A DNA stretch of 64,000 bases from Alphaproteobacteria bacterium (GTDB lineage: Bacteria; Pseudomonadota; Alphaproteobacteria; JAPULJ01). Below, piece by piece: positions 17,682-33,054 of the stretch. Positions within the stretch are counted from its first letter, which is position 1. Each line of letters starts with the position of its first letter. The position numbers and the translations under genes are program-made. The DNA is taken from positions 491-64,490 of the forward strand of contig JARRKQ010000001.1 in the NCBI GenBank assembly GCA_037387885.1, given 5' to 3'. Below the pieces are notes generated by a model. It searched no databases. It worked only from the letters and a program-made list of their open reading frames with translations, and was not told where the DNA came from.

Positions 17682-19227
17682 CTTTGGGCGTCGGCGGGCC
17701 GGCGAAGCGTTTCGCATACGGGCCGACCGCGGTCATGTCGATCTCGACGACGGCCGGGCCCTCGACCGCGAGCGCGCGGGCGAAGGCATCGGCGAAGCCG
17801 GCGGGATCGGACACGCGCTCGTGGGCCAGGCCCATCGAGCCTGCGAGCTTGGCGAAGTCGGGCGTGACGAGATCGGCGTAGATGCGCCGTCCGCCATACT
17901 GGGCGTCCTGGATGTTGCGGATCACGCCGTAACCGAGGTCGTTCATCAGGATGAGGGCGATGTCGGCCTTCTCCTGGACGGCGGTCGCGAGCTCGCCAAG
18001 GCCGAGCGCGAGCCCGCCATCGCCCACGAGGGCGACGGTCTTGCGCCCGTCATTGCCGAGCGCGGCGCCGATCGCCATGGCGAGGCCCTGGCCGATGCCG
18101 CCGCCCAGCGGGTGCACGCCCTGGCGCGGACCCGAAAGATCGACGTAGCGGTTGCCCCAGGTGCTGTTCGAGACGGTAATGTCGCGCACCCAGGCGGCAC
18201 CCTCGGGCATGGCGGCGCGCAGATCGTCGATGATGCGCGCGTAAGGGCCGAAGCCGTCGCGCAGGTCCTCGACCCCCGCGGTCTTGGCGGCCGCGAGGTC
18301 GTCCGCGAAGGCCGGATCGATCGCGGGGCCGTTGCCGAGCCGCTCGATCAGGCCCTGCAGGGCCAATTTGGCGTCGCCCGCGATGAAGAGATTGTTCGCG
18401 TAGGACAGGCCGTCCTTGGCCGGGTCGGCGTCGATGCGGGCGAGCGGCTGGGGCAGGGCGAGGGTGTTCTTCAGCGTCTCGTTGCCGCGCAGGCGCGTGC
18501 CCACGGCGGCCATGAGATCGACGGTCTTGTAGAAGTCGGCGACCGCCGGCACGGCGTTGAAGGCGCCGAGGCTCATCGGGTGGCCTTCCGCCACGACGCC
18601 GCGGCCGTTGACGCTGGTCACGATGCCGACGCCCATCTCGGCGAGTTGCCGAGCCTCGGTCGCGGCTGCCCTTGCGCCGCCGCCGAACCAGAAGAGCGGA
18701 CGCTTGGCGTCGCGGACCAGCGCTGCGAGGCGGTCGAGCGCGGCACTGTCGGGGACCGGCGGGTCGACGACCGGCGGCGTCATCGTGCCGGGCAGCGTGG
18801 TCTCGGCGCCCTGGACGTCGATCGGGATCTCGACGCTGACCGGTCCCGTGGGCGGGGTAAGGGCGGTCTTCACCGCTTCTTCGAGGACGGCGAGCGTGTC
18901 CTCGGGCCGCGTGATGCGGAAGAATTTCTTCGAGATCGCGTGCAGCATGCCGGGCTGATCCGGCGCTTCGTGGATGTATCCGCGGCCCTGGTCGAGAAAC
19001 CCGGTCTCGATCTGGCCGGTCAGATGCAGCACCGGCGTGCCGGCGGTGAGCGCCTCGACGAGGCTGCCGGCGGCGTTGCCGGCCGCAACGCCCGTAGAGG
19101 TCACGCCGACGCTGAGCCCGCCGGTCACCCGCGCGAAGGCGTCGGCCATGTTGAGCGCGCCCGCCTCGCCGCGCGCCGGTACGAAGCGCACGCGCCCGCG
19201 TGCGGCGATCGCATCGAGGATCGGCAT
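17674..19227 (-). CDS. Thiamine-pyrophosphate-dependent enzyme (acetolactate synthase / benzoylformate decarboxylase family). The annotated ORF lacks its N-terminal ~30 residues
   Basis: A TPP motif (GDGGLALGLGELATAVQEKADIALILMNDLGYGVIRN) and the central and C-terminal domains are present. The in-frame sequence upstream of the first ATG still encodes the conserved N-terminus (VGALVAAYLEACGVSAAFGVISIHN). It is closed by a TAA at 19318-19320 and has no in-frame start. See findings. Confidence 0.75.
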   Translation of the reverse strand: MPILDAIAARGRVRFVPARGEAGALNMADAFARVTGGLSVGVTSTGVAAGNAAGSLVEALTAGTPVLHLTGQIETGFLDQGRGYIHEAPDQPGMLHAISKKFFRITRPEDTLAVLEEAVKTALTPPTGPVSVEIPIDVQGAETTLPGTMTPPVVDPPVPDSAALDRLAALVRDAKRPLFWFGGGARAAATEARQLAEMGVGIVTSVNGRGVVAEGHPMSLGAFNAVPAVADFYKTVDLMAAVGTRLRGNETLKNTLALPQPLARIDADPAKDGLSYANNLFIAGDAKLALQGLIERLGNGPAIDPAFADDLAAAKTAGVEDLRDGFGPYARIIDDLRAAMPEGAAWVRDITVSNSTWGNRYVDLSGPRQGVHPLGGGIGQGLAMAIGAALGNDGRKTVALVGDGGLALGLGELATAVQEKADIALILMNDLGYGVIRNIQDAQYGGRRIYADLVTPDFAKLAGSMGLAHERVSDPAGFADAFARALAVEGPAVVEIDMTAVGPYAKRFAGPPTPKDG

Positions 19228-19410
19228 GTTGTGGATCGAGATGACGCCGAAGGCGGCGCTGACGCCGCAGGCCTCGAGATAGGCCGCGACCAGCGCGCCG
19301 ACCGTTGTACATCGACTTTACACATCCGTTCTGCGATTCGCTGCGCAGCGATCTCCTCGATGCCGCACGCCGCGCGGACGTACCTGTCCACGACGGCGGC
19401 GTTTACGCGG

Positions 19411-20229
19411 TCACCCAGGGGGCACGCGCTTCCAGACCTGCGGCTCGTGCGTCGCTTCGTCGATCTGCTGGACTTCGGAGGTGTATTCGATGACGAAGTC
19501 GTTGGGGTCGCGAAAATAGGAGAAGACGTTGTTGCCCGGCCCGTGCCGGCCGATGCCCCAGGCGACGGGAACTTCGTGCGACTTGAGGCGGCCGATGCCG
19601 CGCATCTGATCGTCGAGCGAGGGCATCTCGAAGGCGATGTGGTTGAGCGAGGCGTGCTCCGCGCGGTTGAAGGCGATCGAGTGGTGATCGGTGTTGCAGC
19701 GGATGAAGACCATCTGGTCCTCCGACCAGTCGCTGACCCGGAAGCCGAGCGCCGACTCGTAGAAGGCGAGGCAGGTCTCGAGCCGCGCCGTATTGAGCAC
19801 GACATGGCTGATCTTGCGGGGGGCGGCCGGGCGGTCTGGCGCGTCGGCATAGGTCTCGACCCCGGCGGAGATGCGAAGCAGCCGGTTGTCGGGATCGACG
19901 ACGGCGAAGCCGGTGCCGCCGCCGGGCGTTTCGTTGGGGCCGATCGGCTGCGCGATCGGCGTGCCGTCCGCGACGAGGCGGTCGTGCATTTCCTGCAGCC
20001 GTGTCTCGTCCGGCACGGCGAGCTTGATCCGGACGATGCCGCGGGTCTCGCGGTCGTGCAGCGAGAGGATGTGGTGCTCGGGCCCACTGCCGCGCAGATA
20101 GACCGCGCCGGGTTCGGTGTGCACGGTCTCCAGGCCCCAGCACTCGGTGTAGAAGGTCTCGCTCTGCGTCAGGTTCAGCCCGCCGAGACCGAGGCCGCGT
20201 AACCGAGTGACACCTACCTGATTGGTCAT
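19411..20229 (-). CDS. Two-domain VOC-family extradiol ring-cleavage dioxygenase (catechol 2,3-dioxygenase-like)
   Basis: 272 aa from MTNQVGVTRLRGLGLGGLNL. There are two VOC modules (HHILSLHDRE ... HHSIAFNRAEHASLNHIAFEM). The 439-aa ORF in the track is an upstream extension with Arg-rich sequence. Confidence 0.8.
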   Translation of the reverse strand: MTNQVGVTRLRGLGLGGLNLTQSETFYTECWGLETVHTEPGAVYLRGSGPEHHILSLHDRETRGIVRIKLAVPDETRLQEMHDRLVADGTPIAQPIGPNETPGGGTGFAVVDPDNRLLRISAGVETYADAPDRPAAPRKISHVVLNTARLETCLAFYESALGFRVSDWSEDQMVFIRCNTDHHSIAFNRAEHASLNHIAFEMPSLDDQMRGIGRLKSHEVPVAWGIGRHGPGNNVFSYFRDPNDFVIEYTSEVQQIDEATHEPQVWKRVPPG

Positions 20230-20243
20230 GTCGCGGGTTTCCC

Positions 20244-21071
20244 TTACGCCGAGCGCCGCTCGCCGCGATGGCCGAGCCATTCGGAGATCGTGCCCGCGGT
20301 CTCGACCACGGCGTCGCGGATCCAGGTTTCCAGATCGTCGCCGCTCAGGGTGGATTCGGGCGTGGTGATGTTGATCGCGGCGATTACCGCGCCCTCGGCA
20401 TCGAAGACCGGGGCAGCGACGCTGGCGATGCCGCGCTCGAAGTTCGAGCGGCTCAGCACGTAACCTTGCGCGCGGTCGCGGGCGAGCTGGGCGATCAGAT
20501 CGTCGAGTGAGGTTGCCGTCACCTCGCTGAAGGCCTCGAGCGGTTGGCCCTTGAAGCGCGCGCGGACGTCGTCGGCGGAAAGCTGCGAGAGCAGCGCGCG
20601 GCCCATCGAGGTCGCGTGCGCCGGCAGGCGCGAGCCGACCTGGACATGGCTGGTCAGCGCCTTCTGCACCGCGTGGCGTGCGACATAGACAATCTCGGTG
20701 CCGTCGAGGATCGCCAGATGCGCCGAGCATTGGGTACGGTCGCGCAAGGCCATCAGATGCGGCTGGGCGACCTCGACGATCTCGATCGACGAGAGGAAGG
20801 CAAAGCCGAGGCCGAGCACGCGCGGGCCGAGGCGGTAGGATTTCGTCGCCTCGTCGCGCACCAGATAGCCGAGCTCGGCGAGCGTGTAGGCGATGCGGAA
20901 GGCCGAGGATCGCGTGAGCCCCACCGCGCGCGCGAGGTCGGCGAGCGAAAGCTGCGGCGTCTCGGCGGTGAAGGCCGAGAGCATGGCAAGCCCGCGCGCC
21001 AGGCCCGGCACCATGTAGCGCTCATCCGCGCCGGCCGCATTCGCGTCCGCGTTGTGAGTGGCATCGGTCAT
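20244..21071 (-). CDS. IclR family transcriptional regulator
   Basis: 275 aa from MTDATHNADA. The HTH reads LSLADLARAVGLTRSSAFRIAYTLAELGYLVRD, and a C-terminal IclR effector domain follows. Its start overlaps the stop of the upstream hydrolase gene (ATGA). Confidence 0.85.
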   Translation of the reverse strand: MTDATHNADANAAGADERYMVPGLARGLAMLSAFTAETPQLSLADLARAVGLTRSSAFRIAYTLAELGYLVRDEATKSYRLGPRVLGLGFAFLSSIEIVEVAQPHLMALRDRTQCSAHLAILDGTEIVYVARHAVQKALTSHVQVGSRLPAHATSMGRALLSQLSADDVRARFKGQPLEAFSEVTATSLDDLIAQLARDRAQGYVLSRSNFERGIASVAAPVFDAEGAVIAAINITTPESTLSGDDLETWIRDAVVETAGTISEWLGHRGERRSA

Positions 21072-21889
21072 GCAGCAGCGCGCTCCTGTTCGGCGAGGAA
21101 ATCGGCAAGCACGGTGTTGAAGCGTTCCGGCGCCTCGACATACGGCAAGTGACCCAGCCCATCGAGCAGCACGAAGCGGCCGTTCACGAGCGCATCGGCG
21201 ATACGGCGGCCGCCCTCGGGCGGGGTGACGATGTCTTCGCCGCCGCTGACGACGAGCGCCGGCGCGTCGCAGCCGTCGAGGTCGGCGAAGATGTTGCCTT
21301 GCGAGAGCGTGCGCGCGGCCTGGGCATAGCCGTCGGGCCGCACCTGGCGCATGACGCCGCGCACGGCTTCGAGCACGTCCTCGCCCGTATTCGGGCCGAC
21401 CAGCTTGGCCGCGCGGGCTTCGGTCATCTTGGCGGGGCCGTCGTTGTAGACGCCGTCGAGGCGCATCTTGAGCGACGTCTCCCGCGTCTCGGGATCGGCC
21501 TCCGCGTGGCCGATGGCGGGATCGGAGAGGAGAAGCGAACGCACCCGGGCGCGGTGGCGGCCCGCGAAGGCGCCGGCGAAGAGCGAGCCCAGTGAATTGC
21601 CCACCAGATGCGCGCTCTCGATATCGAGCGCATCGAGCAGGCGGGCCAGCGCATCGGCATAGGCGGCGGTGCCGGGGCACTCGCCGTCGAGATCGCCCGA
21701 GCCGCCATAGCCCGGCGCATCCCAGGCGATCGCGCGATGGTGCGCGCCGAAATGATCGAGCTGGTTGGTCCAGCCAGCCGATCCCGAGCCGATGCCGTGC
21801 AGGAAAACGATGGGCGCGCCGCTGCCGGCCTCGCGGTAGGCGATGGTGAGGCCGTTGGCGTCGATCTGCTTCAGGGCGTGTTCGCTCAT
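21068..21889 (-). CDS. Alpha/beta-hydrolase, meta-cleavage-product (C-C bond) hydrolase-like
   Basis: The N-terminal region reads IVFLHGIGSGSAGW, and there is a GNSLG nucleophile elbow. It is about 273 aa. Confidence 0.8.
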   Translation of the reverse strand: MSEHALKQIDANGLTIAYREAGSGAPIVFLHGIGSGSAGWTNQLDHFGAHHRAIAWDAPGYGGSGDLDGECPGTAAYADALARLLDALDIESAHLVGNSLGSLFAGAFAGRHRARVRSLLLSDPAIGHAEADPETRETSLKMRLDGVYNDGPAKMTEARAAKLVGPNTGEDVLEAVRGVMRQVRPDGYAQAARTLSQGNIFADLDGCDAPALVVSGGEDIVTPPEGGRRIADALVNGRFVLLDGLGHLPYVEAPERFNTVLADFLAEQERAAA

Positions 21890-21901
21890 GGTCTCAAATC
21901 C

Positions 21902-22663
21902 TCAGTTGAAGACGAAGCCGCCGTTCACCGGCAGAAGCTGGCCGGTGACGAAAGCGGCGCCGTCCGACAGCAGGTAGACGACCGAACCGACCACATCCTC
22001 GGGGTCCTGGGCGCGGTGCATGGCGCGGCCCTCGACGTAATGGTCGTGGCGGTCCTGGGGGACGTATTCGGTGGCCTCGACGCGGGTGAGGCCGGGGGCG
22101 ATCGCGTTGACGGCGATGTTGTCGGGGCCGAGCTCGCGGGCGAGCGCCCGGGTCATGGCGATTACCGCGCCTTTGCTGGAGACGTAATGCAGCAGCTTGG
22201 GCGCGCCCCAGAGCGCGGTGTCGGAGGCGATGTTGACAACGCGCGCACCGTTCACGCCTTTCCTGAGCAGCGGCGCGCAGGCCTTCACCGCGAGCCAGAG
22301 CCCGCGGACATTCACCTGCATGACGCGGTCCCAGGTCTCGATGTCGATCTCCTCGAACGTCTTGCCGCCGATGCCGGTGGCGATGGCGCCGTTATTGACC
22401 AGTCCGTCGATGCGCCCGCAGCGTGTCTCGACCGTTTCGGCCATCGCCGTGACGCTGCCCGGATCGCCGAGGTCGAGCGGCACGAAGAGCGTCTCGTAGC
22501 CGGCATTGCCCAGGGCATGGGCGGTATCGCGGCCCCAGTCCTCGTTGATCTCGGCGATCACGACCATCTCGGCCCCGGCCTCGGCAGAGGCTTCCGCGAA
22601 GGCGCGGCCGAGCCCGCGCCCCGCGCCGGTCACCACGATCACCTTGCCGTCGAGCGCGCCCAT
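21902..22663 (-). CDS. SDR family oxidoreductase
   Basis: TGAGRGLG is the cofactor-binding motif and YVSSK the catalytic YxxxK. 253 aa. Confidence 0.85.
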   Translation of the reverse strand: MGALDGKVIVVTGAGRGLGRAFAEASAEAGAEMVVIAEINEDWGRDTAHALGNAGYETLFVPLDLGDPGSVTAMAETVETRCGRIDGLVNNGAIATGIGGKTFEEIDIETWDRVMQVNVRGLWLAVKACAPLLRKGVNGARVVNIASDTALWGAPKLLHYVSSKGAVIAMTRALARELGPDNIAVNAIAPGLTRVEATEYVPQDRHDHYVEGRAMHRAQDPEDVVGSVVYLLSDGAAFVTGQLLPVNGGFVFN

Positions 22664-22669
22664 GGGCGG

Positions 22670-23068
22670 TCAGGCCTGCTTTTCTAGGTGCCAGTCATGC
22701 TCGGAGATGTCGACGACCACGCCGTTCACGTCCTTGACCTTGGTCTCGACCTCGACCCCGGGCACGTCGGGCAATTCCATGAAGTATGCGCCGCCATTCG
22801 CCTCGATCTTTTTCATCGTCTCGTCGAGGTCGTCGACCACGAAGCCGAAATGATGCACGCCCGCCCAGTCGGGGCCGTTGATCATCGAGGGCTGGCCCTC
22901 GGGGAATTTGAGCAGCGTCAGGTTCATCACGCCGTCGGACAGCATGATCGTGTCGCCAATCTCGCTCTCCGACTCGTAGACGCGGCGCAGATCGAACGCC
23001 GCCTCGTAGAAGGCGGCAGCCTTCTCGAGATCGGGGACTTGCATCGCGATGTGGCGCAGCTTCGCCAT
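22670..23068 (-). CDS. VOC family protein (glyoxalase/bleomycin-resistance/dioxygenase fold)
   Basis: 132 aa. MAKLRHIAMQVPDLEKAAAFYEAAFDL is a typical VOC N-terminus. Confidence 0.75.
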   Translation of the reverse strand: MAKLRHIAMQVPDLEKAAAFYEAAFDLRRVYESESEIGDTIMLSDGVMNLTLLKFPEGQPSMINGPDWAGVHHFGFVVDDLDETMKKIEANGGAYFMELPDVPGVEVETKVKDVNGVVVDISEHDWHLEKQA

Positions 23069-23090
23069 CGATCGGCTCGCTCCTTCGGCC

Positions 23091-23636
23091 TTACTTCTTC
23101 GGCCGCTTGATCTTGGAGAGCGGGTGGTCCGGCGGATAGGTCGGCGTCTGCGGCTTAGAGTTGCCGAGCATCACGCACATCAGCGCTTCTTCCTGGCCGT
23201 CGTTCAGCAGACCGCGATAGAGGCCCGGCGGCACCGAGATCAGGTCGCGCTCCTTCAACACCGTCTCGAAGCGCTCGCCGTCCTGCTCGACGAAGAGGCG
23301 GATGCGGCCGCGCAGCATGAAGAACACCTCCTCCACGTCGTCATGAACGTGGATCGGGCCTTCGCAGCCGGCGGGCAGCACCATGGTCGAGAAGGTGAAG
23401 TGCTCGGCTGGCACGGTGTTCTGGTCGGACGAAATGCCCGTGCCGCCGGTGCCCATGTAGCGCATCTGGGCGCGGCGGTATTTCGGGTCGTAGTCGGCCT
23501 GGAACTTCAGCGCGTCCCAGTCGTAGCGGCGCGTCTCGTAGCGCGCGATGCGGCTCTCGACCCAGTCGCCGAGGCTCATATCGGCCGGTTTGCCGCCGAC
23601 CGTCTGGTCGTCCTTGAGTGCGGTCTGTGCGCTCAT
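23091..23636 (-). CDS. Cupin-domain protein
   Basis: 181 aa. A cupin motif is present (GPIHVHDDVEEVFFMLRGRIRLFVE). Confidence 0.7.
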   Translation of the reverse strand: MSAQTALKDDQTVGGKPADMSLGDWVESRIARYETRRYDWDALKFQADYDPKYRRAQMRYMGTGGTGISSDQNTVPAEHFTFSTMVLPAGCEGPIHVHDDVEEVFFMLRGRIRLFVEQDGERFETVLKERDLISVPPGLYRGLLNDGQEEALMCVMLGNSKPQTPTYPPDHPLSKIKRPKK

Positions 23637-23698
23637 GATCGCTTCGCTCCTTGCTTTGATCGCAATGTGTTGGTCGTCGGTGTTGTCGCTTTCGGCGG

Positions 23699-24751
23699 CT
23701 ATTCGGCCGCCGCTTGCTCGTGCTCCAACGCGGCCAGCGCCTCGAGCTGGGCCTTGGCCTCTTTCTCCAGAATGCGGCGGACGCGGGCCATGCCGGTGTC
23801 GTGCTGGTAGAGGAATTCGCGGGCCCGCGCCTCGGGCGCCATGTTCTCCAGCACCACGCGGTCCTGCTCGAGCACGTCCCAGTGGAGGCCTTCCAGGCGG
23901 TTCCGGTACATGAAGCGCCAGAGGTCGCGCTGCCAGCCGGCGACCTTGCGGTTGCGCCAGAAGAAGACCTGACAGGTGTTCTCATCGATCGGCGTGACGC
24001 AGCCGACGATGCCGAAAAGCCCGCCCGGCCCCGCCGACTTGCGGTAGGGGATGGCAAGGCGGAGGAAGATGGCGCCGGTCTCGCGGAACTCGACCCAGTC
24101 GAAGTTGATGTCGCGCTGGGTCTCCTTCTCGAAGACGAGGCCTTTGTCGATCTTGGAGACCTTCATCTTCGCCTGCTTGTCGCCTTCGGCCATCGAGTGC
24201 GAGAGCGCGTGGAGATAAGCGCCGTGCATCGGGTCCATGACGTTGTCGACCGCGTAGCGGTAATTGCATCGCCAGACCGCGGTGCAGAGCATGGTCGCGT
24301 ATTCTTGCGTGTTCGCCAGCTCCTCGGGCAGGACGAGATCGACCGGCTCGGGGTGCGCCGCGTCGCCGAAATAGGCGAACACCGCGCCTTCGATCTCGCG
24401 CACCGGATAGCTCTTGACCGGCTTGGTGCCTTCCAGCGGGCAGCGATCGACGGCGGGCACGGCCTTGACCTCGCCGTCGCCGCCGACCTCGATGCCGTGA
24501 TACCAGCAGGCCAGGCGGTCGCCCAGGTTCCAGCCAAGCGAGAGCCGCGCGCCGCGATGCGGGCAGCGGTCCTCGATCGCATGGGGCGTGCCGTCGGTGT
24601 CGCGCCAGACTGCGATGTTCTCGCCGAGGCGCGTGATCCCGGCGGGCCGCGTCGTCACCTGGTAGCTCGGTGCGATCGGGTACCAGAGATTGCGCAAGCC
24701 GCTGTTCACGAGCCCGTCGATAGCGCTGCGGTCGATCTTCGATGTCGTCAT
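23699..24751 (-). CDS. Rieske [2Fe-2S] non-haem-iron oxygenase alpha subunit with no partner beta subunit (class IA/III type)
   Basis: Rieske motif CPHRGARLSLG...CWYHG. The catalytic domain follows, with DNVMDPMHGAYLH. The start is MTTSKIDRS at 24751, with GAGG 6 nt upstream. Confidence 0.8.
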   Translation of the reverse strand: MTTSKIDRSAIDGLVNSGLRNLWYPIAPSYQVTTRPAGITRLGENIAVWRDTDGTPHAIEDRCPHRGARLSLGWNLGDRLACWYHGIEVGGDGEVKAVPAVDRCPLEGTKPVKSYPVREIEGAVFAYFGDAAHPEPVDLVLPEELANTQEYATMLCTAVWRCNYRYAVDNVMDPMHGAYLHALSHSMAEGDKQAKMKVSKIDKGLVFEKETQRDINFDWVEFRETGAIFLRLAIPYRKSAGPGGLFGIVGCVTPIDENTCQVFFWRNRKVAGWQRDLWRFMYRNRLEGLHWDVLEQDRVVLENMAPEARAREFLYQHDTGMARVRRILEKEAKAQLEALAALEHEQAAAE

Positions 24752-24788
24752 GGCAAGCCTCGTGTGCCCGTCATATTCGTATTCGGGT

Positions 24789-25745
24789 TCATATCGGTAT
24801 CGCCACATCGCCGAAGTCGCGCTTGGGCAGGTAGCGCAACACGCGGCGCTCGGCCAGGATGACGAGCGCGTAGGCGATGATGCCGATGAGGGTCAGAAGG
24901 ATGATGGCGGCGAAGACCGAGCCGGTATTGCCCTGGCCCTCGCCCTGGACCAGCAGGTAGCCGAGCCCGGTATTGCCGCCGACGAACTCGCCCACCGTGA
25001 CGCCGATGACGGCGAGGGTGGAGCCGATTCGCAGGCCCGAAAAGAGCGAGGGCATCGAGGCCGGGAACTCGATCTTCCAGAAGATCTGCCAGCGGCTCGC
25101 CTTGAAGGAACGGGCGAGGTTGATCAGCGCCGGGTCGACCGTGCGCACGGAGGTCAGCACGTTGATCAGGATCGGGAAGAAGACGATCAGGACGGCGACC
25201 AGGATCTTTGGCGCCATGTTGTAGCCGAACCACAGGATGAAGAGCGGCGCGAAGGCCACCTTGGGCGCGATCTGCAGCGCCAGGAGGTAGGGCGAGGCGA
25301 TGACTTCGGTGGTCGGCGACATGCCGAGCAGATAGCCAATCACAGCACCCAGCAAGCAGCCGAGGCTGAAGCCGACCAGCACCTCGAAGCAGGTGATGCC
25401 GGCGTGATAGAGGAGCTCGCTGTTCTGGTAGAGAAAGACGCCTTCCTGGATCACCAGCGAGAGGCGGGGGATGTTGTAGGGCGCGATGCCGAGCAGCACC
25501 GGACCCCATTCCCAGCCGGCGACGAACAGCACCAGGACGACAAGACTGAGCCAGGTCTCCTTGCGGTTGAAGCGGCTGGCGAGCCCGCGCTTTGCCGCTG
25601 CCGGCGTAGGTGCGGGCGCTGCCACCGGGCGCGGCCCCTGTTCAACTGTCGCGGCCGCGCAGCAGGTCGCCGCAGCGCAGCTCCGCTCCGCATCGGGCCG
25701 CGGAACGGCCGGGGCAAGGGCGCCGGCGTCGCGGGCCGCCATCAC
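24789..25745 (-). CDS. ABC transporter permease, NitT/TauT (nitrate/sulfonate/bicarbonate) family
   Basis: There are multiple transmembrane segments and an EAA-like loop (ARSFKASRWQIFWKIEFPASMP). Its start overlaps the ATPase gene stop (ATGA). Confidence 0.85.
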   Translation of the reverse strand: MMAARDAGALAPAVPRPDAERSCAAATCCAAATVEQGPRPVAAPAPTPAAAKRGLASRFNRKETWLSLVVLVLFVAGWEWGPVLLGIAPYNIPRLSLVIQEGVFLYQNSELLYHAGITCFEVLVGFSLGCLLGAVIGYLLGMSPTTEVIASPYLLALQIAPKVAFAPLFILWFGYNMAPKILVAVLIVFFPILINVLTSVRTVDPALINLARSFKASRWQIFWKIEFPASMPSLFSGLRIGSTLAVIGVTVGEFVGGNTGLGYLLVQGEGQGNTGSVFAAIILLTLIGIIAYALVILAERRVLRYLPKRDFGDVAIPI

Positions 25746-26542
25746 GCCGCCTCGATTTCGTCGCCGATGTGCAGCAAGCCCATCAGCTTGGTGATGTAGT
25801 CGCCCATCTTGGGATGGCCGCGCCGGGCGATCGGCTTCTCGCGCTCGGGCATTTCGACGGCGATCTCCTCGATGATGCGGCCGGGACGTGACGACATCAC
25901 CAGGACGCGGTCAGAGAGCGCCACCGCCTCGATCAGATCGTGGGTGATCAGGAAAGCGGTCTTGCCCTCGTCTTTGAGGGTGCGCGCGAGATCGGTCTGG
26001 AGGACCATCTTGGTCTGCGCATCGAGGGCGGAGAAGGGCTCGTCGAGCAACAGCACGTCGGGGTCCATCGCCATGGTGCGCGCGAGTGCGGCGCGCTGGC
26101 GCATGCCGCCGGAAAGTTGGTGGGGGTAGGCATTGGCGAATTCGCCCAGCTTGTATTTCGCGATCAGATCGAGGGCGACCGTGCGGCGGCTCTCCCTGGC
26201 CACGCCCTGGATCTCCTGGCCGAGTTCGACATTGTCGCGGATCGTCCGCCAGGGCAGCAGCAGGTCCTTCTGCAGCATGAAGGCGACGTGCGAGTTGGGC
26301 CCGTCGACCTCTTCCCCGTCGACCAGCACCGTTCCTTCGTTCGGGCGGTCGAGCCCGGAGCCGAGATTGAGCAGCGTGCTCTTGCCGCAGCCGCTCGGCC
26401 CGATCAGCGAGACCACCTCGCCGTCGGCCAGCGCCAGCGAGACGTCCTCGACCGCCGTGATCACTGGATCGCGGCCGTCACCCGAATTGCGGTTGCCGAA
26501 GCGCTTGGTGACCTGACGGAACTCCAGGCGGGAGGTTGCCAT
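25742..26542 (-). CDS. ABC transporter ATP-binding protein, NitT/TauT family
   Basis: Walker A GPSGCGKST, signature LSGGMRQRAALAR and Walker B LLLDEPFSALD. GGGAGAG lies upstream of the ATG. Confidence 0.9.
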   Translation of the reverse strand: MATSRLEFRQVTKRFGNRNSGDGRDPVITAVEDVSLALADGEVVSLIGPSGCGKSTLLNLGSGLDRPNEGTVLVDGEEVDGPNSHVAFMLQKDLLLPWRTIRDNVELGQEIQGVARESRRTVALDLIAKYKLGEFANAYPHQLSGGMRQRAALARTMAMDPDVLLLDEPFSALDAQTKMVLQTDLARTLKDEGKTAFLITHDLIEAVALSDRVLVMSSRPGRIIEEIAVEMPEREKPIARRGHPKMGDYITKLMGLLHIGDEIEAA

Positions 26543-26560
26543 GGGTGCTCTCCCGTCCGC

Positions 26561-26962
26561 TCAGCCGCCGCTGCCGGCAGGCTCGCCGGCGCCGAGGCGC
26601 TGCATCACGGACTTGAAGGAGGTTTCGGTCCAGGGATTGCCATCGGGATCGGCGGGCCCGGTCTCGTTCAGGCCGGCGATGATGGCATCGAGCTCGTAGA
26701 TTTCCTTGGTGAACAGCGCTTCGAGCGCATCGCCCAGCGCGTTCTCATAGTCGGTCGGCGGGGCGGGCCGGGTCTGCCAGCGGATCAGCGCCGGCGCGTC
26801 GTAGCGCTCGATCGACTGGGCATTGCCCTTGTTGGGACCGTCGGCCTTGCTGTCGAGCTGGCCGGCAGCCGCTTTCGCCTCCATTGCGAACCGCAGGTGG
26901 GGATTGAAGTCGGACACGTTCGCGACCCTCCCGGTGCTTGCCGGCTCGGCGCACCCTGCCAC
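26561..26962 (-). CDS. Hypothetical protein of unknown function in the oxygenase/transporter operon
   Basis: There are no recognisable motifs. Third-codon-position GC is high, consistent with coding. A shorter 107-aa version starting MEAKAAAGQ at 26884 is possible. Confidence 0.45.
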   Translation of the reverse strand: MAGCAEPASTGRVANVSDFNPHLRFAMEAKAAAGQLDSKADGPNKGNAQSIERYDAPALIRWQTRPAPPTDYENALGDALEALFTKEIYELDAIIAGLNETGPADPDGNPWTETSFKSVMQRLGAGEPAGSGG

Positions 26963-26987
26963 CGATGCCGGCCCGTGTGCTTCATGG

Positions 26988-27037
26988 TAGTTTTGTATAT
27001 AAAACTATTGTTCTTATACAAAACACATTAACAGGCC
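26988..27037. repeat. AT-rich ~50-bp element with internal inverted repeats (GTTTTGTATA ... TATACAAAAC); left copy of a pair flanking the Rieske ferredoxin gene
   Basis: The sequence is GTAGTTTTGTATATAAAACTATTGTTCTTATACAAAACACATTAACAGG. It is about 75% identical to the reverse complement of the 27601-27655 element. Spurious ORFs containing YKTIVLI are translations of this motif. Confidence 0.5.
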
Positions 27038-27095
27038 GGTGCGAGAGAATCAAGGGCCGGATTTCGCCGTGCGAACCGGGCGGATCAGGCGAGCT

Positions 27096-27413
27096 TCACG
27101 AAGATAGCTTCACGAAGATATCGTCGCCCTCGACCTTGACCTGATAGACGGTGAGGTCCTCCTCGGCGGGCGGGGCGAGGCACTTGCCGGTCCTGATGTC
27201 GAACTTGGCGGCATGGAGCGGGCACTCGACCTGGCCGTCCTCGACGAACCCCTCGCTCAGCATCACGAAGGCATGCGGGCAGACATTCTCGGTCGCGAAG
27301 AACTCCTCGCCGATCTTGAAGATCGCCACCAGCTTGTCGCCGACTTCTGCCGCCGCGGGCTCGTCCTCGTCGACCTCGCTGGTGCTCGCGACCTTGTGCC
27401 ATTCTTCCGCCAT
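27096..27413 (-). CDS. Rieske-type [2Fe-2S] ferredoxin (oxygenase electron-transfer component)
   Basis: 105 aa from MAEEWHKVASTSEV. CPHAFVMLSEG...CPLHAAKF is the Rieske motif. The 162-aa ORF in the track carries an unlikely N-terminal extension. Confidence 0.8.
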   Translation of the reverse strand: MAEEWHKVASTSEVDEDEPAAAEVGDKLVAIFKIGEEFFATENVCPHAFVMLSEGFVEDGQVECPLHAAKFDIRTGKCLAPPAEEDLTVYQVKVEGDDIFVKLSS

Positions 27414-27600
27414 CGCTCTCCTCGTATCTGGTTGCTGTCCCGCCAGCGTGCCCCGTATCCGGCCCTGATGCTGATGGCAGGACGTCGGATCAGAAGTATA
27501 GGTCTCGCGCCGCTGGGTAAACAGAGGCCGCGCCGGTGACGGCGCCGCGCTTTGGGACCGCTCTCGGTCCCGCGGCTTGGGCATTGATCGGCGGAGCGCT

Positions 27601-27655
27601 GCCTGTTAGTCTGTCTAAAATAAGAACGATCGTTTTGTATATCAAACATTCTTCG
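27601..27655. repeat. AT-rich element in inverted orientation relative to 26988-27037; contains the perfect palindrome AACGATCGTT
   Basis: The sequence is CCTGTTAGTCTGTCTAAAATAAGAACGATCGTTTTGTATATCAAACATTCTTCG. It lies in the divergent promoter region between the ferredoxin gene and the substrate-binding-protein gene. The CCTGTTA end mirrors the TAACAGG end of the other copy. Confidence 0.5.
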
Positions 27656-27818
27656 ACATATCCCGTTTCAGGCCGTTTCGCACTTTGAAGCCAATGGAGT
27701 AGTGTCGGGGCAGGCGTGCGGGTCGCGCCGCGGAACAGCATTGCGCCGACGGCGAAGCTTCAACGTCGGACGCCAGCATGACGGCAGATCAGCCGGACGA
27801 CAAAGGGAGAGTCTCAGC

Positions 27819-28814
27819 ATGCTCAATCGACGGACGACGACGGTGGCGCGCAAAGCGCTCATCGGGATCGCGGGCGCAGCGCTCGCGATGACGCTCGGCG
27901 CCGGCTCGGCCAGCGCGGAGAAAGTGACCTATCTGTTTCCGGCGCCGCCGATCCTGCCGGCGTTCGGGCCGATCCAGATCGCCAAGGGCAAGGGTTACTA
28001 CAAGGCCGAGGGCCTCGAGGTGGTGTTCCAGCGCGGCAAGGGCGGCGTCGACGTCGCCAAGCAGGTCGGCGCCGGCAATGCGCAGCTCGGCGGCGGACTG
28101 GCCGACGGGCCGATCATCGTGCGCGCCCAGGGCGTGCCGGTGCGCTCGGTCGCTTCATTTGGCGGCCGTGGCTTCATGCAGCTCGTGGTGCGCGCCGATA
28201 GCGGCATCAAGTCGCCCAAGGATCTGAAGGGCAAGACCATCTCGGTCATGTCCTACCAGGACACGACCTTCTATGCGTTGCGCGGCATGTTGGCGAGCGA
28301 GGGGCTCACCCTGAAGGACGTGAAGGCGATCGCGGTCGGCCCGCGCAACGTGCCGACGATGGTGATCGAGAAGAAGGCCGTGGCCTGCGCCTGCGTGCCC
28401 GACTGGATCCCGCCCTTCCACCGCGCCAAGGTGAAAATCAACATCATCAAGTCGGAGGACTACTTCCCGCACATGGCGCAAGCCATTCTGGCCTCCGACG
28501 ACATCATCAAGAAGAATCCCAAGATGGTCGCCGCCTTCATCCGCGCCTCGCTGAAGGGCATGAAGGACATCATGGACAACCCCAAGGCGGCGGCCGCCGA
28601 TTTCGCCAAGTTCGTGCCGCTGTGGAAGGGCAAGGAAGGCTATATCACCGGCGTCTTCACCTACTACGCCCAGCTCGTCTATCCGGGGCAGAAGAAGCTC
28701 GGCGAGATCAATGTCGAGCGCCTGACCAAGCTGCAGGACTTCTATGTGAAGCAGGGCATCGTGCGGAAGCGGGTGCCGGTCGCCGATCTCTACACGAACC
28801 AGTTCATCAAGTAG
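27819..28814 (+). CDS. ABC transporter substrate-binding protein, NMT1/THI5-like (NitT/TauT family)
   Basis: A signal peptide (MLNRRTTTVARKALIGIAGAALAMTLGAGSASA) is followed by a periplasmic binding fold. AAAGGGAGAG lies upstream of the ATG at 27819. Confidence 0.85.
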   Translation: MLNRRTTTVARKALIGIAGAALAMTLGAGSASAEKVTYLFPAPPILPAFGPIQIAKGKGYYKAEGLEVVFQRGKGGVDVAKQVGAGNAQLGGGLADGPIIVRAQGVPVRSVASFGGRGFMQLVVRADSGIKSPKDLKGKTISVMSYQDTTFYALRGMLASEGLTLKDVKAIAVGPRNVPTMVIEKKAVACACVPDWIPPFHRAKVKINIIKSEDYFPHMAQAILASDDIIKKNPKMVAAFIRASLKGMKDIMDNPKAAAADFAKFVPLWKGKEGYITGVFTYYAQLVYPGQKKLGEINVERLTKLQDFYVKQGIVRKRVPVADLYTNQFIK

Positions 28815-28837
28815 TGGGCCGACCATCGGTCGAAACG

Positions 28838-28870
28838 AAAACCCCGGCCTTAGCGCCGGGGTTTTTTGTT
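28838..28870 (+). terminator. Rho-independent terminator after the substrate-binding-protein gene
   Basis: AAAACCCCGGCCTTAGCGCCGGGGTTTTTTGTT has a 7-bp GC stem followed by a T6 run. Confidence 0.75.
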
Positions 28871-28941
28871 GGGGCCACTTACGTATCCCTCCTCCTCTGA
28901 AGAGGGGGAGGGGATGAGAGAGGTCCCGAACGAATTTCGCG

Positions 28942-29469
28942 TCAGAACGGCACCGAGATCGTGTCGAGCACGCCCTCGGCGTTGACCAGATCGACGCGCT
29001 TCCAGGCGATGCGCCAGCCGCCGCCGGACCGGCGCAGGCAATGGCGCGCGGTGGCGCCGTAGACGCGCTGCTCGCTGAGGCGGTGCTCGAGCATCACGAA
29101 CTTCGACCGCACCACCGCTTCCTTACCGCCGTCGGCGGTGCTTTCGAGCGTCGTGCCGCTGACCACGCGCACGGTCGCGATCGGCGGCGAGACGGCGTGG
29201 CCCGTCCCGTCGGTGAGGCGGCGCACGCGCGCCTCCATCAGCATCCGGTCGTCGTAGAAGATCGAGATCTCGTTCAGCGGATCGGTCTGCTCGGGCCGGT
29301 GCGGCGCCCAGTAGTAGGCATCGTCCGCGTAGAGCGCGAGCCAGTCCTCGTAGCGGGCTTCGTCGAGCAGGCGCGCTTCCTCCAGCACCAGCGCGGTGAC
29401 CGTCGTCATCGCCTCGGGCGACAGCCGCACCGAGCTGTCTCGCGGCTTGGCTTTGACCTCAGTCGTCAT
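28942..29469 (-). CDS. Aromatic-ring-hydroxylating dioxygenase beta subunit
   Basis: 175 aa with an NTF2-like fold. EARLLDEARYEDWLALYADDAYYWAP is typical of small subunits. It overlaps the stop of the alpha subunit gene. Confidence 0.8.
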   Translation of the reverse strand: MTTEVKAKPRDSSVRLSPEAMTTVTALVLEEARLLDEARYEDWLALYADDAYYWAPHRPEQTDPLNEISIFYDDRMLMEARVRRLTDGTGHAVSPPIATVRVVSGTTLESTADGGKEAVVRSKFVMLEHRLSEQRVYGATARHCLRRSGGGWRIAWKRVDLVNAEGVLDTISVPF

Positions 29470-30824
29470 TCGGCGGCCTCTGCGCTAGCGTTGGTGGCCG
29501 GGCGCATGTAGTCGAGCCAAGCCTTGAACTGGTTGCGGATGTGGATCTCGCTGGTGCCGTGATCGCCGTGGCGGCCGCCGCGCTCGTCGTCCACGTCATG
29601 CCCCTCGCCGCGGCCGAGATGCAGCCACTCCGTACCCTCGCTCTGCAGGCCGTCGCGGATTCGGCGGTAGATCTCCAGATCGTCGGTCAGGATCTGCGAG
29701 GCCGGCGAGTTGATCGCATTGGCGAAGCGCACCGTGTCCTGGAACATCGCCTCGGGCGCGCCTTTGAGGCGGAAGGAATAGATGTGTACCTCGGTCTTGT
29801 CGGGCGCCACCGGCAGGATGACGCGGAGCTGGCGGAAGGACGACATGAAGGTGAGGTTCGGATAGACGATCGTGTTGAAACGGGCGACGCTCAGGATCTC
29901 GCGCGTGCGCTTGGCGCCCTGCGCCGCTTCGAGCGCGTCGCGGTATTCGACGAAGACCGGATCGTCGGAGGCGGCGAGCAGGCGCTCGTCGTCGTGATAG
30001 TCGCCCATGTATGAGTGGCCGCCGTCATAGGCCCAGACGCCGACATTGTCCCAGATCTTGGTGAGCACGCCGTTCTGCGTCATCTGCCGCACGGCGATCT
30101 CGCCGGCACCGTCGGTGGGCGCGTCCATGCGCTGCTTGGCGGCGGTGTCGATCGACGAGGCGTGCACGAAGGCCGGATGCATCAGGTCGTTGACGTTCTC
30201 GATATAGAGCTTCCAGTTGCCGTCGTAGGTGTGCTTGAAAATGCCGCCCGCGACCTCGATCTCGCCGCCCGGCGCGCGGTCGACCATGTCATCGAAGGAC
30301 GTCGTGATGTCGCCCAGCCACTCTTCGAGTGCAGGACCGTCTGCGGCGAGGCTCGCAAAGACGAAGCCGCGATAGATCGCCTGGCGGGCGACGGGCCGTA
30401 ATCCCAGCGAACCGCGCTCCTTCTCGAAGCGCTCGTCATAGCCTTCCTGGCGCGGCACGCCGATCAGCGCGCCGTCCGTCCCGAAGGTCCAGCCGTGATA
30501 GCCGCATTGGAAATGCTTGGCGTTGCCCGTCTCCGCGGCGCAGACCATGGCGCCGCGATGGGTGCAACGGTTGTGCAGCACGCGTACATTTCCGTCGCGG
30601 CCCCGCACCATCAGGACGGGCTGGCGGCCGAGGCGGGTGGCGTAGAAGTCGCCGGGCTTCGCCACCTGGCTTTCGTGGCCGACGAAGAGCCAGGCGCGGC
30701 CGAACAGGCGCTCGAGCTCGAGCTCGAAGATATCCGGGTCGGTATAGACGCTGCGGTGGACGCGGTCGGGCTGGATCAGCGCCGCGAGGTCGGGCGTCGG
30801 CCGGTGGGTGAGGGGACGGTTCAT
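29466..30824 (-). CDS. Rieske aromatic-ring-hydroxylating dioxygenase alpha subunit (alpha/beta type)
   Basis: Rieske motif CTHRGAMVC...CGYHGW. The catalytic domain carries the mononuclear-iron His/Asp region. The start is MNRPLTHRPTP at 30824. Confidence 0.85.
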   Translation of the reverse strand: MNRPLTHRPTPDLAALIQPDRVHRSVYTDPDIFELELERLFGRAWLFVGHESQVAKPGDFYATRLGRQPVLMVRGRDGNVRVLHNRCTHRGAMVCAAETGNAKHFQCGYHGWTFGTDGALIGVPRQEGYDERFEKERGSLGLRPVARQAIYRGFVFASLAADGPALEEWLGDITTSFDDMVDRAPGGEIEVAGGIFKHTYDGNWKLYIENVNDLMHPAFVHASSIDTAAKQRMDAPTDGAGEIAVRQMTQNGVLTKIWDNVGVWAYDGGHSYMGDYHDDERLLAASDDPVFVEYRDALEAAQGAKRTREILSVARFNTIVYPNLTFMSSFRQLRVILPVAPDKTEVHIYSFRLKGAPEAMFQDTVRFANAINSPASQILTDDLEIYRRIRDGLQSEGTEWLHLGRGEGHDVDDERGGRHGDHGTSEIHIRNQFKAWLDYMRPATNASAEAAE

Positions 30825-30914
30825 GGGCAGGCACTCCATCCTGGCTGCGGAACGCCGAAGAACATATATGTTCGAATCTGGCATGCGCCGGGCATGGCGT
30901 AAAGGCGAGCCATA

Positions 30915-32036
30915 TCACGCCGGCATCAGCGATCCGAGATCGCCGGGCCGGATCGCCCAGGCAGGCAGTGCGTCGGCGGGGGCATGTGGGCCGGCCTCCT
31001 TGGCGGGGAAGCCCTCGAGGACGAGATTGTCGCCGAAGCTCGCCCCCTGGCGGACCAGCGCGCCCGCTTTGATCAGGCAATTGGCGCCGACCACCGAATT
31101 GTCGCAGACGATCGCGGCGGGCTCGACGACGGTGCCCGCCCCGATGCGGCAGCCATGGATCATCGCGCCGGGACCGATCACCACCCCGTCGGCGAGCTCC
31201 AGCGTGTTGTCGGGCAGCAGGTGGAGGACCGCGTTCTCCAGAATCTGGACGTCGGCGCCGATGCGCACGGGCCCGTGGCTGTCGCCGACGATGCGCACGC
31301 CCGCGCCGATGATGCTCCGCGCCCCGATCACGACGTCGCCGGTGATCTCGGCGCTATCGAAGAGCACGGCGTCGGAGGCGATCTCGGGGGACTTGTCGTT
31401 GTAGCGATAGATCTGCGCCATGGTCGGTCCTGCGTTTGTCGATTCGCGGTAGGTCTCGGTCGGAACGTCGGGCAGCGAGAGATCGCCGCCCCGCAGCGCA
31501 GTAAGCCGCGCGATATCGGCCTCGTTCGCGGCGCGGATCGTCCGGCCGGGACGGCCGACGACGACGGCGTTGTCGGGCACGGTCATGCCTTCGGGGATCA
31601 GCGTGCCCTCGCCGGTGAAGACGCGGTCGCCGAGCACTGCACCCGGCATGATGACGGTCGCGTTGCCGATCTCGCAGAGGTCGCCGATCCGCGCGCCGAT
31701 CACCCGGGCGAGGTGGCCGAAGACGGTGCGTCGGCCGACCGAGGCCGGCATGTCGGGTCGGCCGACGATCACCCCGGTTTCCAGCAGCGCCGTGCCCGCG
31801 CCGATGGCGACGCCGCCGCCTGCGGCGCGCACCGCCGTGCCCTGGCCCAGATAGGCACCGGGGCCGATCTCGATCGGGCCGATCACTCGGGCGGAGGCCG
31901 CGATGCGCGCGCCGCCGTGGCTCCGCCGTTCGTCGTGGTCGGGTTGCTCGAAGGCCATCGCCCCAAAATCCGCCGTAGCGTCCGCCATTCCGCCCGTGCC
32001 TTTGATAGCACGGCCGTCGTGTGGGGCGGATGACAA
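30915..32036 (-). CDS. Tandem left-handed beta-helix (hexapeptide repeat) protein, two gamma-carbonic-anhydrase/PaaY-like modules
   Basis: Hexapeptide-repeat patterns ([LIV]GxxxxIG) recur in both halves. The second half begins MAQIYRYNDKSPEIASDAVLFDSAEITGDVVIGARSIIGAGVRI. An alternative start is at 31988 (MADATADFG). Confidence 0.65.
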   Translation of the reverse strand: MSSAPHDGRAIKGTGGMADATADFGAMAFEQPDHDERRSHGGARIAASARVIGPIEIGPGAYLGQGTAVRAAGGGVAIGAGTALLETGVIVGRPDMPASVGRRTVFGHLARVIGARIGDLCEIGNATVIMPGAVLGDRVFTGEGTLIPEGMTVPDNAVVVGRPGRTIRAANEADIARLTALRGGDLSLPDVPTETYRESTNAGPTMAQIYRYNDKSPEIASDAVLFDSAEITGDVVIGARSIIGAGVRIVGDSHGPVRIGADVQILENAVLHLLPDNTLELADGVVIGPGAMIHGCRIGAGTVVEPAAIVCDNSVVGANCLIKAGALVRQGASFGDNLVLEGFPAKEAGPHAPADALPAWAIRPGDLGSLMPA

Positions 32037-32103
32037 TCAGATAGTTGACTCAGGCAACTAATTTGATTGAAATGGACGTGCGACCTTGAGTATTGGCGGT
32101 GCA

Positions 32104-33054
32104 ATGACGGAAACACTGCAACCCACCGAGGCCAAGCGGATCGAGGCGGTGCGGCGCTTCAACCGCTTCTACACGCGGCGCATCGGCGTGCTGCGCGAGG
32201 GCCTCCTCGACAGCCCGTTTTCGCTCACGCAGGCGCGGGTGATCTACGAGCTGGCGCACCGGGCGGGTGTGACGGCGCGCGAGCTCGGCGCCGATCTCGG
32301 CCTCGATGCCGGCTATCTGAGCCGGCTGCTGCGCGGCCTTCGCGAACGCGGGCTGGTGGCGGAGACGCGCTCGTCCAGGGACGGGCGGCGCAAGCTGCTG
32401 CACCTGACGCGGGCGGGGGAGGTTGCCTTCGCGACGCTCAATGCCCGCTCGCGCGAGGAGATCGGGGCCATGCTGGGCGCGCTGGCGCCGCGCGACCGCG
32501 CGCGCCTCGTCGCGGCGATGGAAACGATCGAACAAACGCTTAAGGCCAAGCCCGAGACGCGATCGCCCTACATCCTGCGCCCGCACCGGGCCGGCGACAT
32601 CGGCTGGGTGATCCAACGCCATGGCGCGCTCTACGCCCAGGAATACGGCTGGGACGAAACCTTCGATGCCATGGTGGCGCGGGTCGCCGCCGACTTCATC
32701 GACAATTTCGACGAGGCGCGCGAGCGCTGCTGGATCGCGGAGATGGAGGGCGCGATCGTCGGCTCGGTCTTTCTGGTGCGCCAATCGGACGCGGTCGCGA
32801 AGCTGCGCATGCTGCTCGTCGATCCGGCTGCGCGCGGCCACGGGCTCGGCCGGCGGCTGGTCGAGGAATGCATCGCCTTCGCGCGCGCGGTCGGCTACTT
32901 GAAGATTACGCTCTGGACCAACGATATCCTGTACGCCGCCCGGCATATCTACGAGAGCGTCGGCTTCGTGCTGATCGACGAGGAGCCCCATCACAGCTTC
33001 GGCCAGGACCTGGTCGGCCAGACCTGGGAGCTCGATCTGAAGACGAACGCGTGA
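32104..33054 (+). CDS. MarR-type HTH domain fused to a GNAT N-acetyltransferase
   Basis: The N-terminal winged helix reads FSLTQARVIYELAHRAGVTARELGADLGLDAGYLSRLLRGLRERGLV. The C-terminal GNAT motif reads RGHGLGRRLVEECIAFARAVGY. Confidence 0.75.
   Translation: MTETLQPTEAKRIEAVRRFNRFYTRRIGVLREGLLDSPFSLTQARVIYELAHRAGVTARELGADLGLDAGYLSRLLRGLRERGLVAETRSSRDGRRKLLHLTRAGEVAFATLNARSREEIGAMLGALAPRDRARLVAAMETIEQTLKAKPETRSPYILRPHRAGDIGWVIQRHGALYAQEYGWDETFDAMVARVAADFIDNFDEARERCWIAEMEGAIVGSVFLVRQSDAVAKLRMLLVDPAARGHGLGRRLVEECIAFARAVGYLKITLWTNDILYAARHIYESVGFVLIDEEPHHSFGQDLVGQTWELDLKTNA

Follow-up and report, generated by a model that had tools for sequence, protein, structure and literature searches.

Two AT-rich inverted elements beside a Rieske ferredoxin gene are predicted to be outward-facing promoter-operator modules of the IclR type

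The window (the whole 64-kb stretch of DNA that was analysed) carries a catabolic and uptake gene cluster, the genes of which were mapped by third-position GC (GC3) and by Pfam/NCBIfam profiles. The genes and the gene-associated features that are relevant here are the following:

20244-21071, minus strand: IclR-family regulator, PcaR/PcaU-like, the candidate binder (PF09339, PF01614)
21068-26542, minus strand: ABC ATPase, permease, VanA-like Rieske oxygenase, cupin, glyoxalase, SDR and alpha/beta hydrolase (GC3 map, Pfam)
26561-26917, minus strand: HTH_62 protein (PF20552), first gene of the operon (Pfam, 1.2e-26; GTG start)
27096-27413, minus strand: Rieske ferredoxin, between the modules and in neither operator (PF00355, 1.6e-21; AndAb-like, 2.9e-30)
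27495-27525, minus strand: the ferredoxin's own promoter-like sequence, CTGTTTACC-N-TATACT, without a box (invariant columns in a 6-genome alignment)
27819-28814, plus strand: NMT1/SsuA-type periplasmic binding protein (PF09084, 1.6e-40; TIGR01728)
32086-33054: MarR-GNAT protein

The HTH_62 gene is preceded by a Shine-Dalgarno sequence (GGGAGG, 26925-26930) and codes for a small, acidic protein (118 aa, pI 4.46), to which a 118-aa gene call on contig L091 corresponds. Its domain is named 'recombinase-like helix-turn-helix' in Pfam. The AF2 model of the protein has a confident three-helix C-terminal domain, and comparison of the model to PDB folds gave no match at E <=0.001. A search of the literature on recombinase-like helix-turn-helix proteins and on IclR/Rieske operators returned nothing useful. 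The binding protein is the partner of the ATPase and permease encoded on the other strand. A ferredoxin identical to that of the window was found on only two contigs, both short and metagenomic. For the oxygenase, NCBIfam and PDB provide only distant matches (phthalate, carbazole, and dicamba oxygenases), from which no substrate can be assigned. The start codon of the IclR gene overlaps the stop codon of the hydrolase gene (ATGA). Among its closest PDB entries are 2ia2, 5w1e, and 8eju, and the protein scores 232 bits against TIGR02431, the model of the PcaR/PcaU/PobR subfamily, which is under the cutoff of 284.75.

A repeat search detected an inverted repeat (I1) with arms at 26990-27036 and 27601-27647, which are 47 nt long, 77% complementary, and 564 nt apart. 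The arms coincide with two dips in GC content (0.317 at 26980-27039 and 0.333 at 27610-27669, compared to 0.663 for the 64-kb window). The first-pass annotation, made from the sequence letters, had described a pair of inverted elements (A and B) which are AT-rich against their background, and both the pair and its composition are thus real. So are the internal inverted repeats which it had pointed out, and both are perfect: GTTTTGTATA/TATACAAAAC in element A (I12, 10 nt) and the palindrome AACGATCGTT in element B (27623-27632). The coordinates given for the elements were slightly generous: element A spans 26987/26990-27036 rather than reaching 27037, and similarity in element B stops at about 27647-27650 rather than continuing to 27655.

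The core GTTTTGTATAT occurs exactly only in elements A and B within the 64 kb. With up to two mismatches, 6 matches were found in the window (1.1 expected; none of 100 shuffles reached 6), and two of the inexact ones fall within element A. An operator matrix scored 61.7 and 60.1 at the two sites and -0.3 at the next independent position. Further operator sites beyond A and B were absent from the 64-kb window, and nothing exceeded the threshold in shuffles of 1.48 Mb. No covariance model from Rfam matched the region 26500-28000 at E up to 1, and a search of a plasmid collection gave no match.

When each element is read toward its own gene, A and B become co-linear (A on the minus strand toward the HTH_62 gene, CCTGTTAATGTGTTTTGTATAAGAACAATAGTTTTATATACAAAAC; B on the plus strand toward the binding-protein gene, CCTGTTAGTCTGTCTAAAATAAGAACGATCGTTTTGTATATCAAAC). 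Their inversion in the genome is explained by their position at the head of two divergently transcribed units. The layout is the same in both: a -35 hexamer TTGATY, a spacer of 17 nt, an extended -10 of the form TGnTAnnnT and, immediately thereafter, two palindromic boxes of the type GTTTY-N6-RAAAC, 19 nt apart start to start. Together the boxes provide four half-sites of alternating orientation (GTTTY-N5-AGAAC-N4-GTTTY-N6-RAAAC). On this sequence basis, we interpret the elements as two copies of one outward-facing promoter-operator module, the parts of which are assigned as follows:

27048-27053, minus strand: -35 hexamer of promoter P_A, TTGATT, 17 nt upstream of the -10 (TTGAT invariant in 12/12 aligned sites)
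27025-27033, minus strand: extended -10 of P_A, with TG at 27033-27032 and hexamer TAATGT at 27030-27025
27010-27024, minus strand: operator A box 1, GTTTTGTATAAGAAC, 15 nt, predicted at about -6 to +9, with the conserved blocks TGTyT and ATAAGAAC
26990-27005, minus strand: operator A box 2, GTTTTATATACAAAAC, a 16-nt palindrome (7/8 pairs), predicted at about +14 to +29, 19 nt from box 1
27584-27589, plus strand: -35 hexamer of promoter P_B, TTGATC (from the aligned sites)
27604-27612, plus strand: extended -10 of P_B, with TG at 27604-27605 and hexamer TAGTCT at 27607-27612
27613-27627, plus strand: operator B box 1, GTCTAAAATAAGAAC, with a degenerate left half-site; the C in column 14 is specific to B-type sites in all six genomes
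27632-27647, plus strand: operator B box 2, GTTTTGTATATCAAAC, which with the end of box 1 gives AAGAAC-GATC-GTTTT and contains AACGATCGTT

The two boxes would thus span about -6 to +29 relative to the predicted transcript start, which is a repressor-like position. Transcription is predicted to begin at about 27015-27020 from P_A (minus strand) and at about 27618-27622 from P_B (plus strand). The sequences TAACAGG and CCTGTTA had been taken for inward-pointing ends of the elements. They are present but are better read as the TGnTA of the extended -10 than as termini, and both -35 hexamers fall outside the coordinates originally assigned to the elements. A generic promoter scan missed both modules because their -10 hexamers match the consensus at fewer than four of six positions. 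The same scan proposed TTGATA-N17-TATTTT on the minus strand inside element B. Its -10 is not conserved (the -7 T occurs only in the window and in L012), and we regard the match as a side effect of the palindromes, which are AT-rich.

Orthologous loci were collected by way of HTH_62 homologues, which led to contigs L001, L004, L006, and L010 (57-66% HTH_62 sequence identity); a genome scan added L012 (95%). In these five metagenomic genomes, both modules are found at the same two positions, and in all five the order is binding protein, ferredoxin, then HTH_62-ABC-oxygenase through to IclR, with the ferredoxin gene always between the modules. The order of the operon genes is retained in L001, L004, L006, and L010.

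The 12 sites from the six genomes, each read toward its own gene, align without gaps. Invariant or nearly so are TTGAT, the length of the 17-nt spacer, TGnTA, the -7 T, TGTyT, ATAAGAAC, and GTTTyGTATAnnAAAC. From the -10 onward, the conserved columns follow each other as TGnTA, a T five bases on, TGTyT, ATAAGAAC, four free bases, and GTTTyGTATAnnAAAC. Positions between the conserved blocks, including the sequence of the spacer, vary freely. TTGATY-N17-TAnnnT is preceded by TG in 12/12 sites and the -7 T is present in 11/12, so that the sequence flanking the boxes has the features expected of a sigma-70 promoter with an extended -10. Identity is higher between A copies of different genomes (0.76) than between A and B of one genome (0.68), and a single alignment column separates the two types in every one of the six genomes, with T in A and C in B. 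This indicates that the two copies are old and separately maintained rather than the outcome of a recent insertion.

P_A is predicted to drive the minus-strand operon, which comprises the genes for HTH_62, ABC ATPase, permease, Rieske oxygenase, cupin, glyoxalase, SDR, hydrolase, and IclR, and which probably continues via the genes for an extradiol dioxygenase, a TPP enzyme, and an AspDH-like protein. P_B would drive the gene for the NMT1/SsuA-type binding protein on the plus strand; the predicted leader of that gene is long, about 200 nt. The earlier proposal that element A serves the operon with the 'hypothetical', ABC, and oxygenase genes is supported, and the hypothetical gene turns out to be the HTH_62 gene (PF20552). 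For element B, which had been assigned to both the ferredoxin and the binding-protein promoters, only the latter assignment is supported. The ferredoxin gene has a box-free promoter-like sequence of its own (CTGTTTACC...TAtAaT), which precedes the start codon by about 75 nt and from which the B boxes are about 90-150 nt upstream. The transcript of this gene is predicted to start separately, near 27488. With its own sequence of this kind and the boxes so distant, there is no evidence that B controls the gene, and the ferredoxin is probably not among the genes served by element B in the clade of the window.

The modules only appear to bracket the ferredoxin gene functionally: each has the same polarity toward its own gene, and it is the divergence of the two units which makes them inverted. 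This also bears on the proposal that the elements are remnant ends, that is, terminal inverted repeats of a small mobile cassette or MITE which delivered the ferredoxin. Formally, such a unit of 658 bp does exist, with inverted ends of 47 nt and 77% identity and with a single enclosed gene. However, the arrangement is identical in all five related genomes, at orthologous positions, and the A and B copies have the long separate history described above. Conservation is found at promoter and operator positions and not at the ends, a target-site duplication is absent (the flanks are cttcatggta and attcttcgac), no further copy is present in the 64 kb, and none occurs outside cluster promoters in 1.48 Mb of related loci. 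In other lineages, moreover, single-copy modules bracket nothing (see below). We regard a cassette as extremely improbable, and this interpretation is effectively refuted.

The distribution of the module beyond the clade of the window was analysed with the HTH_62 profile, which detected 79 loci in a set of 185,579 species genomes. Without exception, these loci derive from metagenome-assembled genomes (MAGs) of uncultured Alpha-, Beta-, and Gammaproteobacteria, and the majority share the core cluster according to tblastn. A double box was defined as two GTTT-N8-AAAC boxes with <=3 mismatches which are 18-20 nt apart. It is present in 47 distinct loci from MAGs of all three classes, always at the head of the cluster, whereas the shuffled control gave a match for 6/420 loci. 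Typical sites are TGTTTCATATATGAAACAATGTTTCATATATAAAAC. Of 58 double boxes, 53 have a start-to-start spacing of 19 nt, three of 20 nt, and two of 18 nt. In 35 of the 47 loci (1% expected), box 1 is preceded by TTGA at a distance of 28-30 nt, and this position indicates that the register of promoter and operator is conserved across classes. Another double box lies 1-2 kb upstream in L067, L081, and L084.

Beta lineages have a single copy of the module, placed before the ferredoxin as the first gene of a long operon which includes the binding-protein gene (for example L022, with the module at 6875 and the ferredoxin at 6955). In L009, the module is likewise present once, and a ferredoxin is absent. 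The copy number is one where the binding-protein gene sits inside the operon, and it is two in the clade of the window, where this gene is divergent. The divergent binding-protein gene thus explains why there is a pair of modules, and no cassette is needed. The module follows the promoter and not the ferredoxin or HTH_62.

The first-pass annotation had suggested paired operator sites for one regulator, possibly the IclR protein. This agrees with what we predict, and two kinds of evidence point to IclR: its co-occurrence with the boxes and the fit of the boxes to IclR motifs. A double box is present in 36/46 loci with an IclR gene and in 0/14 complete loci without one (Fisher's test, 1e-7, for loci which are phylogenetically non-independent). 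The 14 loci are those in which the hydrolase and the TPP/AspDH genes are present and no IclR-like sequence is found at E up to 1e-3. They probably represent about four independent losses. Their best box candidates have 5-6 or more mismatches, which is background. The difference is well illustrated by two relatives: L061 has HTH_62, no IclR, and a plain TTGACC-N17-TAGGGT promoter upstream of HTH_62 without boxes, and L080 has both IclR and boxes. Ten loci with IclR have no double box that is recognizable at the search threshold (<=3 mismatches); among them, two lack promoter coverage, L046 and L015 have variants, and L007 has different palindromes. In L009, the motif is present and no IclR gene is found in the fetched stretch, where the cluster breaks off behind the SDR gene. 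Comparison of the IclR recognition helix with the half-site variants GTTTC and GTTCC gave no clean pattern of covariation beyond phylogeny.

IclR-family motifs have been catalogued by Suvorova and Gelfand (2021; PMC8222616), and the comparison made here refers to those sections of the catalogue which give the consensus types and spacings. Group 1 is GTTYCRY-W3-RYGRAAC and group 2 is TGRAACA-N1-2-TGTTYCA. The same sections describe three-box sites with alternating direction, as well as tandem sites with a distance of 18-22 nt centre to centre, which are attributed to tetramer binding. They further hypothesise two alternative dimer registers for IclR proteins. For PcaR, PcaU, and PobR, the half-sites are GTNCG-N5-6-CGNAC, and three 10-bp repeats are reported for PcaU.

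The half-sites of the 47 loci (GTTTT/AAAAC, GTTTT/AGAAC, and GTTTC/GAAAC) conform to the GKTYC/GRAMC pattern given in these sections. The length of the group 1 sites (17-18 nt, GKTYCRY-W3-4-RYGRAMC) is not attained: the boxes have 16 nt (GTTTCAT-AT-ATGAAAC type) and are one base short, and box 1 has 15 nt in the clade of the window. The group 2 pair, TGRAAC-(3-4 nt)-GTTYCA, has its counterpart in AAGAAC-AATA-GTTTTA of element A and AAGAAC-GATC-GTTTTG of element B, and other lineages have TGAAAC-AAT-GTTTCA as the central pair. The tandem distance of 19 nt, found in 53/58 double boxes, is within the published range. With respect to the portion of the catalogue considered, the modules are thus alike in their alternating GTTTY/RAAAC half-sites, the combination of group-1-like and group-2-like pairs, the 19-nt tandem, an IclR gene in the regulated cluster, and sites within 200 nt of gene starts. 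They are unlike the catalogued sites in having 16/15-nt palindromes and four half-sites rather than two or three.

Taken together, the IclR protein is most likely the binder of both modules and is the best candidate that we can name. We consider it likely that A and B are IclR-type promoter-operator modules and that an IclR tetramer represses P_A and P_B together by occlusion. The operon-encoded IclR protein would bind each module as a dimer of dimers and would block binding of RNA polymerase or promoter escape. A substrate or intermediate of the pathway would then release it, so that uptake and catabolism would be induced together. As the IclR gene is part of the operon, the repressor would also regulate its own synthesis.

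The sign of regulation is predicted from one line of evidence, the position of the operator, and the regulator is closest to PcaR/PcaU/PobR, several of which are activators. An alternative with the same sites and the same protein is that IclR activates, or acts dually, as do PcaR, PcaU, and PobR. It is favoured by the TIGR02431 score, which is the best that the protein attains, and by the closest solved relatives, which include a Pca regulon regulator (8eju). PcaR reportedly makes contact with elements of the core promoter when it activates pcaIJ. Members of this group, which is the closest regulator subfamily by sequence, control aromatic catabolism (the beta-ketoadipate pathway) and, like the modules described here, have multi-repeat sites. 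Most of them are activators, though, and their sites coincide with the -35/-10 elements or lie further upstream, whereas the boxes of the modules are downstream of the -10 and over the predicted start, where bound proteins normally block. Furthermore, the promoters look self-sufficient (TTGATY, 17-nt spacer, extended -10). Repeats of the GTNCG-N5-6-CGNAC type, as listed for PcaR, PcaU, and PobR in the cited sections of PMC8222616, are absent from the modules, which have GTTTY-type (GTTTC-type) half-sites instead. Finally, where a lineage has lost IclR, the boxes are gone as well and an ordinary promoter remains, which fits the loss of a repressor-operator pair. We thus consider activation or a dual role unlikely.

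That the boxes are bound by another protein, be it HTH_62, the MarR-GNAT protein (32086-33054), or an unlinked regulator, appears a little less plausible still. HTH_62 has a helix-turn-helix domain and is encoded by the first gene behind element A, and L009 has the motif and HTH_62 and no IclR gene in the fetched stretch. Against this, the 14 complete loci discussed above keep HTH_62 without IclR and boxes, the boxes of the Beta lineages are upstream of the ferredoxin and several genes before HTH_62, and every one of the 23 HTH_62 homologues is a strongly acidic protein (pI 4.05-5.09). L001 has both modules and lacks the MarR-GNAT gene, and the motif matches the consensus types of the IclR family.

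Less ordinary variants are conceivable, to which we assign only a slim chance. HTH_62, which is always encoded in the cluster, may act on the switch (e.g. as an anti-repressor or DNA mimic which titrates the IclR tetramer), or it may be an accessory subunit of the VanA-like oxygenase, in which case its synthesis would be the first output of derepression. Alternatively, the four half-sites may allow two dimer registers, and if both are used, control would be graded rather than on/off.

Repression by an IclR tetramer, as favoured here, is ordinary as a type of gene switch and does not involve a new kind of element; what is new is its setting, an uncharacterised pathway of uncultured bacteria. 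An odd inverted repeat has nevertheless yielded a concrete and testable model of how a cluster of 13 genes for catabolism and uptake would be regulated. The module together with IclR could be used as a reporter or biosensor in a screen for the inducer, which would identify the substrate of the pathway. With four alternating half-sites and a fixed promoter register in three bacterial classes, the module is a clean natural example of an IclR-type site, and this layout bears on how IclR tetramers choose between two dimer arrangements.

Two characterised systems are suited for comparison. TtgV controls an efflux pump, and the half-sites of its operator are dissimilar from one another. The ttgG operator of Pseudomonas putida is bound by TtgV as an IclR-family tetramer, covers about 42 bp, and overlaps the promoter (PDB 2xro; cited in PMC8222616). 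A tetramer, a site of ~35-40 bp over the core promoter, and release by an effector are likewise proposed here. The differences are that TtgV is a distant relative of the IclR protein from the cluster (E 5.7e-12) and that the cluster is catabolic and for uptake while the TtgV target is an efflux pump. The second system is PheR from Sphingobium sp. SHPJ-2 (PMC13273656), which is described as an IclR-family repressor that the substrate releases. PheR and the IclR protein of the window have in common a gene that accompanies an oxygenase cluster, an aromatic one in the case of PheR, and a link between uptake-related functions and catabolism. PheR, which is experimentally characterised, differs in its motif (GCAACG) and in the single promoter that is reported for it.

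The regulator gene of the cluster and the hydrolase gene share nucleotides at their junction:

21068-21071, ATGA overlap of the IclR start codon with the hydrolase stop codon.

The IclR-family regulator is therefore translationally coupled within the operon that it is proposed to control, which implies that it is autoregulated.

Three related Alphaproteobacteria MAGs carry a second double box, that is, a further pair of the palindromic GTTTC-type boxes proposed as IclR sites (L067, position 8968; L081, 7889; L084, 8827). This site adjoins a TTGACA sequence and precedes the cluster promoter by 1-2 kb; no obvious downstream gene was found for it in these loci. The GTTTC double box is absent from L007, a locus from a lower-GC relative in which the ABC system is replaced by a TonB-dependent receptor and an MFS transporter. 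Other palindromes (ATTGTTC...GAACAAT and GTTCAT-N6-ATGAAC-N5-GTTCA) are located upstream of the receptor gene at L007 6090-6230; these may represent a diverged operator for the IclR protein encoded there, a protein with 39% identity.

Behind element A, the proposed promoter-operator module of the minus-strand operon, lies a gene that was formerly considered hypothetical:

26561-26917, minus strand, HTH_62 gene (PF20552).

The small protein is strongly acidic (pI 4.05-5.09 among 23 homologues). Its AF2 model confidently predicts a three-helix C-terminal domain, and a PDB fold search with this model returned no match. The HTH_62 gene is conserved beside the VanA-like oxygenase or its transporter in 79 loci, every one of which belongs to uncultured Proteobacteria, and it is still retained in loci that have lost IclR and the operator.

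Two Rieske oxygenases are encoded around the Rieske ferredoxin gene:

23699-24808, VanA-like Rieske oxygenase.
28942-30884, alpha/beta Rieske oxygenase.

No ferredoxin reductase was found among the genes annotated at 16842-33054. The ferredoxin gene itself is associated with two sequence features:

27495-27525, minus strand, CTGTTTACC-N15/16-TAtAaT upstream of the gene, invariant in six genomes.
27092-27119, 14-nt tandem duplication at the 3' end of the gene (two copies of ATCTTCGTGAAGCT on the coding strand).

The upstream feature is probably a separate ferredoxin promoter, which has a conserved but unusual -35 region and is devoid of an operator box. Through the duplication, which is lacking in the 98%-identical relative L012, the C-terminus of the ferredoxin is changed from ...FVKLA* to ...FVKLSS*.

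The binding-protein gene, which element B would serve on the plus strand, has a predicted leader of about 200 nt (region 27648-27818 in the window; regions 9117-9285 and 585-770 in the orthologous loci L001 and L006, respectively). The leaders of L001 and L006 contain GGGTCGATATAGTG-like units in two to three tandem copies.
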